Of a DNA stretch of 64,000 nt, positions 27,950-31,414 are shown in pieces. The position numbers were made by a program, and so were the translations under genes. Below the pieces are notes generated by a model that searched no databases, was not told where the DNA came from, and saw only the letters and a program-made list of their open reading frames with translations. This DNA comes from Cetorhinus maximus (Eukaryota), in assembly GCF_964194155.1 (NCBI RefSeq), contig NC_135905.1:8928001-8992000 (forward strand), given 5' to 3'. The number at the start of each line of letters is the position of its first letter. The first letter of the stretch is position 1.

Positions 27950-29100
27950 TGTAAGACTCTTAAACAGGAGTTTTCACTTCCCTCTAAGGTCTGGACCCCG
28001 TACTGAGTTTCATGACATGAAACAAACATTGAACACAATTTCCACTTTATGTGGAAAACCTTTATTAACCCACTAAGCAATAGTATATACTTAACACCAG
28101 TTGCTTAGTCAGAGTTGCGTGCCAGAGCTCGTTCCTGGCTGGTCAGTCTGCTGAATGAATTTTTCTGGACGACTTTTTTTTGTGCAAAAATGTACTTTAT
28201 TCATAAAATATCTGAAAGAACAATACAAAACATTTCAAAATGGCCATCACTAAAAAGTGCAATAATATTCAAGTTTCCCACATAGATCATGTCGCACCCT
28301 GAGGTACTTCAGTACAATCAAGGGACAAATACAGACATTTCAAAATGGTCATAACAGAGTCAGACAGCGCAATGGTATTAAAGTTATCAACATAGATCAT
28401 GTTGTACTCTGAGGTGCTTCAACACAATTGTGATACATGTAATATTCACTGCATACATTCAGTGTGAATCATACAGCCTGAGGGGTCCTGTACAATTCCC
28501 AGCCCCTCGGTGCACTATGGCTGAAAGGTCTTAGACCGCAGCCTTTCCCCACTGCGCCTCTGAGGCGGCTATCCCGAGCTTTAGTGCATCCCTCACCACG
28601 TAGTCCTGGACCTTGGAATTTGCCAGTCTGCAACACTTGGTCGGGGACAACTCTTTGCACTGAAAGACCAACAAGTTTTGGGCAAGTCGCATTTCCCTGG
28701 CTTCAGCAGCGATGTCCTTATGCGCTTTCGCTTTATACCCCTTTCTGACCCTGGTCCCTTGACATAAAAGGTGATATGTTGAATGGGGTAATCCGATTGG
28801 GTTTCAGTGCTTTATTAATCCCACCATGGTGATACAAGACCACCTGCATGCGGTCATATCCTGCTCTCAGCAGGGGCTGTCTCCGGGTATCCACCAGTAA
28901 TCTGCATCTTGATAAAGCATGAAGAAAGCCATTTATACATATCCAGAGAGGCCATTGTCTCAGTGTTGTAGACAGTGTCTGGGTCACCACCTTAAGGCCA
29001 TACCCTGACGTATGCGTGTGTGTGTGTCCTTGTTTAGTTAAACTGTCTTTATTTTTAAAAAGTCTAATATGAGCCCCAGTGATGATATCTTCGGTCAGAA
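27950..29100 (-). repeat. Putative 3' LTR of the env-bearing element, interrupted by a Tx1 LINE
   Basis: Minus strand: purine tract AAAGGGAGAA (29110-29101), then TATAAA (28737-28732), AATAAA (28066-28061), ending ...GTCTTACA near 27950; boundaries inferred. Confidence 0.4.
28174..28684 (-). mobile_element. Tx1-clade LINE 3' end with poly(A) tail
   Basis: Minus translation AQNLLVFQCKEL..CCRLANSKVQDYVVRDALKLGIAASEAQWGKAAV*, then 3' UTR, AATAAA and A8. Confidence 0.75.
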
Positions 29101-29249
29101 TTCTCCCTTTGTCCTGATGTTGTCCTCACTCCATGTTCCTACCATTCCTTGAGCTCCACACACTGTTCCACACCACAACTGGACTATGTTTTACTTACAA
29201 ACAGAAATACAAGGGATATTAAAAATGCCTTGCATAATACAAGAGATAT

Positions 29250-30556
29250 CAAAATGCCTTACAGCATCCAAACTTAAGTGCATAATTTCGCATACAAACA
29301 TTACTACACTTGCGATTCTAATCCATTCACCTTATTCCGTCCCTTTGGCAATATTCACCTGTCCATGAGCAGAAACATGTGATAATACCCGTGTTCCCAG
29401 TCTAACATGTTAAGCTGGTGTAAAACAAAATGTTCCATCCCGGATAGAACAGATCAGACCTTCATACCGGTATTCCTGGTGTATGGTTGCAACACAATAT
29501 TTCCCCTTTCCTTTATATGCCACATGTATTAGGAACTCTTCCCCTGGTCATCATATGTAACTGGGCTCTTCCTGATCCCAAGTGAACTTGCAGGTTGGTG
29601 CTGCATTTTCAGTTACATCTTACGGGCAAATAAAAGTATCCCCTTTCTGAGTACGCCCAGACAAATCCGGGACTACCCAAGTGATCCCATCCACTTATGC
29701 CATGTACCTAGGCATTGGTCATAATGTGACATATGACCCTAATCCTCTACAACAATGTTTTCAATTCTAAAAAGAGGATTAGTGTTCCTTTAGGACAGGA
29801 TAGTACAAAACCAACCCTAGCATATCCATGGTACAGTTCCCCAGATGGCACTCATGTTTCATTGTGTATGCGTGCAAGAGTCCACTGATTTTACATACAT
29901 CAATGGTCAGTTGGTAAGTTGACAGCTCTAAGATGTCGATCAGTAACCCAGGAGGGAAGCCCCCCTACCGCAATCCTCTGGAGATTCTCTCAGGCCTGTT
30001 CCATCAACCAAGAACCATACATTGTGCAAACATAATTCTCAGCAGCCTCCACAAAGGCATTTTTATCCCCTCTTACAATTTCATTCATGTGGTAGGCATG
30101 CTCTTCCAATTCCCCCATCAAATCTTGCAAACGATTAGTCTTCCTCTAATTTATTCTGTTCCACATAATTCATCCCATTTAATATTTTCCTTAACCTATT
30201 TCGAACAGTATTTATCACTTTGTCTAAAATAGCTAAATCTAAACTATTTACAAATGATGTTCGGGTATTAAATATAGTTGAAGTGTCATTAATCGAAGTA
30301 CGTCTGACCTGCCCATGAGAGTGAGATTTGGTTTGATTCTCTGAACCCTTATACAGTCTAGTGCATTCATCCTCATCAATCACAGTGCTGGTTCATTCTC
30401 AAAATTCTCTCAAAACTTGAGAACATTCAATTCTGCAATGCTTGGGTTTTATGTTTACACCATGGAGGTAATCCCATATCCGTTAAATTAATCATCACCG
30501 ACACTACCCTCAGGGTGCACATCGTGATATAGTATCATTTGTGCTGGTGTAACAGC
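29250..30556 (-). pseudogene. Decayed env-like viral fusion glycoprotein of an endogenous retroviral/LTR element
   Basis: Minus-strand pieces: MILYHDVHP/VVSVMINLTDMGLPPWC; VRRTSINDTSTIFNTRTSFVNSLDLAILDKVINTVRNRLRKIL; RLQDLMGELEEHAYHMNEIV..YVCTMYGSWLMEQA*ENLQRIAVGGLPSWV; VVPDLSGRTQKGDTFICP; AYKGKGKYCVAT..YRYEGLICSIRDGTFCFTP; WIRIASVVMFVCEIM. Confidence 0.65.
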
Positions 30557-31414
30557 CAGTCAGTTCTCTGGGCCTGGGGTATGTCTGGGGCATCTCGCAT
30601 TACTATTTGTGCGAGGAAAGGCCAGGAGCTTCCGAGGCAGTGCCAGCTGGTTGCCCCACACTCTGCTCATTGAGCTACTTGAACAACATGGTGCCTGATC
30701 TTTATCCTCACACACACATCGATGCCACCCTATGAGCTGCAAATTGTTTCCAACAAAATGTCTTGTTGACTTGCCTGGGGTCGCCAACACCATCAAGAAC
30801 CAACAACAGCTTGGATTTATATAGCATCTTTAATGTGGTAAAACATCCCAAGGCACTCAGAAACAACATCAAACAAAATTTGACATTTACAAAACTAACC
30901 AACCCATCAGATTGCTCAAACTGTTTTTCTAACAACTTTGAGTGGTAATCTTGGCAGTTCACCTAGATCATCAAATGCCCTAAATTCTAGTTATCTGGAT
31001 AAAATAAAACACTAAATTACTGGTTTGTCATTTGTTTCTTTTTAATGTGATATTTCAGCCAAGAATTTTTCTAGAAAGGTCAAGAGTATGGTTTCAACTC
31101 TATTTCACAGTTGGTCCACCATTAACGGCCATGCCGTCAGTTCCCACAGCCCAAAGCTCTTGAATTCCCTCCCTAAACTTCCCTTTTTTAATACACTCTT
31201 TAAATCTTACCTCTTTGACCAAGATTTTGGTCATCTCTCCTAATATCACCTAATATGTCAAATTTTGTTTGATAATGTTCCTGTGAAGTGCCTTGTTAAA
31301 GGTACAATATAAAAGTACAAGTTATTGTGATGCAAGGAGAAACAATGTTTTCACCGCCTGATTACGTGCTATTAATCTGGGATTATTTTGCATTGAGCCA
31401 ATGGACTATCACCA

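Follow-up and report, generated by a model that had tools for sequence, protein, structure and literature searches.

Foamy viruses have a Gag without the CCHC knuckle and a Lys primer, snakehead retrovirus (SnRV) uses an Arg primer, and class III ERVs produce a 5-bp target-site duplication. Lokiretroviral RTs form a clade that is sister to those of all other retroviruses, and the integrase of lokiretroviruses is closest to CGIN1. The fold of the paramyxovirus and pneumovirus fusion protein (F) has previously been seen in the Env of two kinds of retrovirus, the lokiretroviruses and the foamy viruses. In the available part of PMC7947760, lokiretroviruses combine a tether and RNase H with an F-type Env that bears a basic cleavage site, heptads and a TM and that has a PF00523 match at the sequence level; they are recorded there from five host classes, with Chondrichthyes not among them and with none of three Orectolobiformes genomes positive. 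PFG is found in 24 of 24 lokiretroviral RTs in the alignment of that paper, and the RTs of SnRV, foamy, gamma and epsilon viruses have PQG, with LQYVDD in SnRV. SnRV-related ERVs (CmiERV lineage I) are reported from the elephant shark in the excerpt available of PMC4422223, and that of PMC8922424 states that clade Huo infects all vertebrate lineages.

We have found that a stretch of the Cetorhinus maximus genome (64,000 nucleotides, hereafter the window) carries on its minus strand, from position 30789 to 27950, what is very probably the 3' end, a broken env followed by an LTR, of a dead, non-autonomous shark ERV copy, one likely related to SnRV (clade Huo/class III) and with an Env predicted to be a class I fusion protein of the paramyxovirus/pneumovirus F type. 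As an ERV the locus is unremarkable, a dead copy of a kind already known and presumably without present function; its Env, however, is of an unusual type. The env motifs quoted in an earlier note on this DNA do sit on the minus strand, where they are spread over three frames among stops and frameshifts. The env-like region is real and not a chance resemblance, having at least 30 genomic copies at 72-80% nucleotide identity; against an intact env protein it scores 64.7 bits, with shuffled sequences reaching at most 20.4 (n=50). It is the fossil env of an LTR retroelement, and other copies are tied to LTRs and pol.

The relic begins with the remnant of an N-terminal env domain (30594..30789, minus strand, as for all features of the relic) that is found in a set of copies we refer to as subgroup A. 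Homology to these copies stops at 30782-30789, the copies themselves stay alike further upstream, and the window element is truncated at its 5' end at 30789. The F2-equivalent part of SU follows (30312..30592); it begins CPRHTPG, is broken by stops and frameshifts, and aligns to residues 182-275 of the intact homologue P0007, in which the range of the structural model matched to F proteins begins at residue 189, near the start of this same part. The short N-terminal subunit of the earlier note is partly an artefact of the 5' truncation: intact homologues and fuller copies have an extra domain of ~180-190 aa before the F2-like part. In place of the INLT sequon given there, most sister copies have INLA, although intact homologues do have N-L-S/T at that place. 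The cleavage-like VRR belongs to a decayed basic site, QVRR (30300..30311), in the same column as the R-x-[KR]-R of the intact homologues, and R-x-x-R is still present in three of 20 scored copies. Beyond it lie the fusion-peptide position, the HR1 helices and the CxxYG/LPSW region (29911..30299), for which both models give long confident helices; the role of fusion peptide is putative, assigned from position. The Cys-rich beta domains of the F1-like subunit (29350..29910) are 33% identical to P0007 over 121 aa (E 4e-17) and also match the intact Cetorhinus protein encoded on C7 that is discussed below (tblastn E 4e-13).

The junction of a ~340-nt deletion, by which HR2, the Trp-rich segment and the TM were lost, lies at 29345..29352 and is followed by what is left of the env tail, a few codons that end in the stop (29304..29345). 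Because the ~340 nt that hold HR2 and the TM are missing, WIRIASVVMFV is not the remnant TM it had been taken for; it comes from translating the env tail and the 3' UTR out of frame. Similarly, AAAGGGAGAA (29110), put forward as the PPT, falls 153 nt inside the LTR, in U3. The polypurine-tract position is instead at 29264..29275, decayed in the window copy but occupied in most sister copies by a purine-rich AAGGGTGG-type tract directly 5' of the LTR. The LTR-like segment is in part what it was said to be: a 3' LTR (27950..29263, TGTAAG...CTTACA, ~800 nt when the insert is subtracted) begins at 29263, where 5' and solo LTRs also begin, with unrelated upstream flanks. The interval 28166..28684, however, with its AATAAA at 28201, was rejected as native LTR, since it is the 5'-truncated 3' end of a high-copy LINE with an A-tail (86-89% identity, 5458 candidates genome-wide) and is missing from most sister LTRs. 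We take this insert to be a Tx1/L1-like non-LTR retrotransposon. Such an element is present at about the same LTR position, with differing 5' lengths, in four copies (the window, L052, L071 and L050), and one element has the insert in its 5' LTR only; 27 other Tx1/L1-like copies that we checked are located elsewhere. The pattern suggests independent, site-preferring insertions.

The boundaries of the element were read from its relatives in the 4.0-Gb genome, in which the env-like stretch gave 57 matches; 40 of 66 candidates were scored, 30 loci were fetched, and upstream 10-kb stretches were taken for 20 of these 30. An anchor was found for 14 of the 17 loci with an alignment to the 3' end; 12 of these 14 stop with CA at 27950 and all continue into unrelated flanks, and three upstream LTRs begin TGTAAGG at the equivalent of window 29263, preceded by unrelated DNA. 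Uninterrupted LTRs measure ~800-860 nt. The layout LTR-PBS-gag-pro-pol-env-PPT-LTR is seen across copies, no single examined copy holding every part; the fuller copies that the earlier note had proposed searching for thus exist, with gag-pro-pol and LTRs linked to env. Within the fetched stretches no 5' LTR was found for L014, L007 or L011. In three 5' LTRs (L032, L033 and L123) a PBS starting TGG lies 6 nt after the LTR end and matches a genomic tRNA-Arg(TCG) at 16 of 18 positions in one and at 13 of 18 in the other two. We note that a 6-nt spacer between LTR and PBS is long, and that it is common to all three. Among solo LTRs for which both ends were located, target-site duplications were seen as a perfect 5-mer in one case and a perfect 4-mer in another. 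The K2P distance is 0.156 in one LTR pair and 0.164 in a second, a divergence that gives a loose date of ~36 My with the mammalian rate of PMC7947760, or one up to 10 times older, and equally loose, with the shark rate assumed in PMC4422223. There is also a younger sister family at many Cetorhinus loci, comprising dozens of less degraded copies with an RT identity of 58-66% and an Env that is 25-28% identical to P0007.

The copies fall into two subgroups. In subgroup B a zinc knuckle, RT, tether, RNase H and integrase lie upstream of an env that runs from a signal-like start through an N-terminal domain, a core of the window type, HR2, a Trp-rich segment and a hydrophobic TM to a short tail. 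The env-linked pol matches RVT_1 (E 2e-20), RT_RNaseH (E 6e-12), RNase_H (E 2e-8) and rve (E 2e-8) in Pfam, and the env-linked gag gives zf-CCHC at E 6e-4, its 20.3 bits falling just below the cut-off of 20.8. Subgroup A, that of the window, has an N-terminal domain unrelated to that of B, joined at window 30594; it was found at eight main loci, linked at every one to a window-type env. The two subgroups therefore share an env core and part at the start of the F2-like portion, a difference that is likely a module swap. Subgroup A keeps the LTR, PBS, 5' end of gag, integrase tail and env, as seen in two complete elements followed from 5' LTR to env; PR, RT and RH are absent from both, and 10 subgroup-A stretches gave no same-strand match to any of the three. 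Subgroup A is non-autonomous, and its class is inferred from the LTR, PBS, gag and integrase tail that it shares, since no RT was seen in it.

No member of this Env family is recognizable as F at the sequence level. Pfam found no meaningful family in the window frames or in a natural copy, PF00523/F gave no Pfam or PDB match for any family member, and PDB sequence and profile searches with the Env returned nothing significant. A word-index protein search had no match with a degraded env copy or with an RT piece, and with an Env profile recovered P0007 and P0026 only; the ESM Atlas gave one cluster at 0.82, which we treat as a lead only. A profile of 37 natural Env pieces retrieved 24 proteins among 1.84 billion, 22 of them from sharks or rays and one from a frog, and the family profile matches P0007 with an HH probability of 99.75 over 365 columns. 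The frog protein (P0011, Pelodytes ibericus, 723 aa) is a full-length family member ~30% identical to the shark gene.

The family is predicted to fold like paramyxovirus/pneumovirus F on the basis of the model of P0007, the intact homologue that carries the fold and is itself ~24-33% identical to the window-family copies (mean pLDDT 60.7, pTM 0.43, with values mostly of 70-90 over residues 181-250 and 361-600). Foldseek against the PDB placed hPIV3 F best (E 2e-10) and also returned the F proteins of RSV, henipavirus, NDV and hMPV; 247 chains were found at E<=0.001, all among the matches listed being F proteins, with a high rmsd of 15-30 A. In a viral structure library 13 matches reached E<=0.001; most were to F proteins, and foamy Env was also among them. 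In a wide VIA search, F proteins and foamy Env ranked within the top 15 (Z 11.3 to 5.9), with NDV F at Z 11.3 (rmsd 14.8, 344 aligned) and foamy Env at Z 8.3. For a degraded copy AlphaFold gave a poor model (pLDDT 48), to which Foldseek found nothing similar. The resemblance to F and foamy Env covers residues 189-626 of the intact homologue, at 9-14% identity; unlike the F proteins and foamy Env, the shark Env has an additional N-terminal domain and is encoded by an LTR retrovirus. As the intact homologue is predicted to fold like paramyxovirus/pneumovirus F, the earlier structural guess of an F-type rather than gamma-type Env holds. A gamma-type Env was rejected in its own right, there being no CX5-6CC and no ISD-like (CKS-17) motif in the window frames or in four intact homologues, in agreement with the first reading. 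We note that rank 1 for the P0007 model in the viral library was the glycoprotein model of a fish filovirus (Thamnovirus; E 7e-12).

The retroviral lineage of the window family was judged from RT motifs and one PDB ranking rather than from a tree, and on these grounds a relationship to SnRV appears strongly favored. The env-linked RTs read LPQGFHNSP, or a decayed form of it, together with an IQYVDD-type motif, and in the sister family 16 of 18 loci have a motif of the PQG/QYVDD type and none has PFG. RT motifs, host class and the possession of gag-pro-pol-env with LTRs all resemble the SnRV/clade Huo/class III group, including CmiERV lineage I, and the Arg primer of SnRV resembles the Arg-type PBS of the shark family. 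SnRV Env was absent from the results of our Env-family protein and structure searches, and the literature that we searched contained no report of an F-type Env fold in the SnRV/clade Huo group or in SnRV-like shark ERVs.

The earlier note had proposed a lokiretrovirus, which would be the first in a cartilaginous fish, and the Env does lend itself to this idea: the relation to Mononegavirales F that marks lokiretroviral Env is found in the predicted fold of the intact homologue, if not as a PF00523 sequence match, a tether and second RNase H are present, and a PGP-x-x-G-hydrophobic motif opens the F2 part both here and, by eye, in two lokiretroviral Envs in the available supplement of PMC7947760. 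Tether and RNase H are not diagnostic, however, since they are common to all retroviruses. The PFG of every lokiretroviral RT in the available alignment occurs in 0 of the RTs read here, in which PQG and QYVDD are found as in SnRV; the two lokiretroviral Envs in that material have F2 directly after the signal peptide, whereas the shark family alone has the extra N-terminal domain; and the host classes and Orectolobiformes genomes given there, as noted above, do not favor a lokiretrovirus in sharks. Membership in the lokiretroviruses is not supported by these motifs, and we consider it very unlikely. A foamy-like virus, or another unnamed basal retrovirus lineage not related to SnRV, is unlikely too, if somewhat less so. 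Foamy RT is the best RT match in the PDB (64 bits, against 42 for MLV and 39 for Ty3), and foamy Env also has an F-type fold, both in our structure searches and in PMC11468914. Foamy RT may nevertheless win by default, the RTs of SnRV and ERV-L being absent among the PDB matches listed. No solved structure is known for either. By eye, PTVA, FHxSPxIFHQ, xQYVDD and GxKINPKK match SnRV and not foamy viruses, and the Gag CCHC knuckle (zf-CCHC, near the cut-off) and Arg-type PBS of the shark family are unlike foamy viruses.

A different question is posed by the HR2-TM deletion, which removes ~340 nt from eight of the 23 copies scored at the junction (the window and seven sisters), shortening the anchor-to-anchor distance from 370-390 nt in full-type copies to 43-44 nt, with short direct repeats flanking the deleted part. 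That the same deletion recurs in eight copies, with a stop within a few codons after it, could be taken to mean that a TM-less subgroup-A env was retained for a purpose, to make a secreted protein that blocks receptors. Stops and frameshifts nevertheless run throughout all copies, the copies have diverged here to the same degree as elsewhere in the element (p-distance of the env core 0.19 within subgroup A), and two subgroup-A-type copies keep the TM region partly or wholly. We therefore rejected a secreted decoy, to which we give almost no credence; amplification of one defective genome would explain why eight copies have the deletion in common.

The SnRV-related reading leads to the following possible history. 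The viral Env would have formed a trimer, with furin cleaving it at the basic site, and its N-terminal accessory domain would have bound the receptor and been exchanged between subgroups at the F2 boundary; HR1 would extend to insert the fusion peptide, and HR2 would zip back. A defective subgroup-A genome may then have lost HR2 and TM by template switching between the short direct repeats, while helper proviruses may have gone on copying it in trans, tens of My ago or more. The window copy would afterwards have lost its 5' part, received the LINE and decayed. The 754-aa gene on C7, which belongs to this env family as a distant member, was probably captured by the host and has since likely been under purifying selection.

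This member is what a search for intact or domesticated copies, as the earlier note had suggested, brought to light. It is an intact env of the same family at a single locus of the Cetorhinus genome outside the window (L081:1495-3759, minus strand, corresponding to G000:C7:31581165-31583429); a strict first look with P0007 gave this one stop-free locus at 86% identity, the next matches being at most 64% identical. The protein is 754 aa long in Cetorhinus, and its counterparts measure 739 aa in Chiloscyllium punctatum, 754 in Scyliorhinus torazame and 754 in Heterodontus francisci; pairwise identities are 84.8-91.0% across these four sharks, which represent three orders or more. Neither pol nor paired LTRs were found within 10 kb of the gene, the sole matches, in all three frames, being to a SINE-type insert. 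Of several hundred differences in the ORF, 76 were listed and 42 of these are third-position changes (p 7e-5 for an expectation of one third), and contigs X1, X3 and X5 are gap-free over its 5' 1 kb; the gene is likely under purifying selection. Contigs from three of four runs of other organisms that we guessed to be RNA, none of them recorded as such, span most or all of the ORF. At an AG that precedes the ATG by 2-3 nt they depart from the genome into other sequence, which is the same in two of these runs, while a large run that is likely DNA, though its kind is unrecorded, continues past the AG. One contig from another organism also matches ~700 nt of the 3' flank, in pieces. From these contigs, the env is apparently transcribed and apparently joined to an upstream exon by splicing. 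The C7 protein is ~30% identical to the window env, and so its source was a related virus and not the window-family copies. Two broken relatives, L082 (C10) and L083 (C9), are nearer to the intact gene, at 46% and 64% identity, and are possibly fossils of its source lineage.

The C7 gene is thus likely a domesticated F-type env; its putative role is likely either that of a fusogen anchored in the membrane or that of an antiviral protein that blocks receptors. In having an intact single-exon ORF that is conserved across species and apparently transcribed, with no pol or paired LTRs nearby, it is like known domesticated env genes (syncytins, percomORF and gamma-type shark candidates); it differs from the gamma-type ones in its F-type fold and in lacking ISD and CX6CC. 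We found no report of the conserved gene in the literature searched, and a 2020 co-option survey by Wang and Han, which is said to cover 177 events, may list it. A screen reported in bioRxiv 10.64898/2026.05.06.723177 used syncytin queries and, in its available text, required ISD and CX6-7C, so that a gene of the C7 type would be invisible to it. That screen found no syncytin candidates in placental sharks and gives synteny between two Squalus species only, in contrast to the conservation of C7 across shark orders, and its main text, as available, is without paramyxo, snakehead, loki, Heterodontus or Chiloscyllium.

We are evenly divided about a broader, joint reading, in which an F-type Env is the norm in a large SnRV-related lineage of shark and ray retroviruses with swappable N-terminal receptor modules, and in which one such env was domesticated before bullhead, carpet and ground sharks split and has been kept as a spliced, cleavable, membrane-anchored host protein. 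That split dates to ~200 million years ago or more. The gene would then be a previously undescribed one, for a syncytin-like fusogen of non-gamma type or for an antiviral protein, and would rank with the oldest retroviral env genes that are known in intact form; its conservation makes it testable whether sharks use a captured F-type fusogen. The pairing of an F-type Env with a conventional, non-loki RT supports the F fold as an old retroviral envelope and not a peculiarity of lokiretroviruses, and it is relevant to the four scenarios of origin between which PMC7947760 does not decide. It also means that an F-like env is by itself not enough to identify a lokiretrovirus.

Lastly, we note two other features of the window. 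At 913-1353 on the plus strand there is an unrelated integrase-like remnant, 24% identical to the integrase of the ERV family of the env relic, and between 11300 and 14700 lies a GC-rich tandem array with a period of 28-29 nt.
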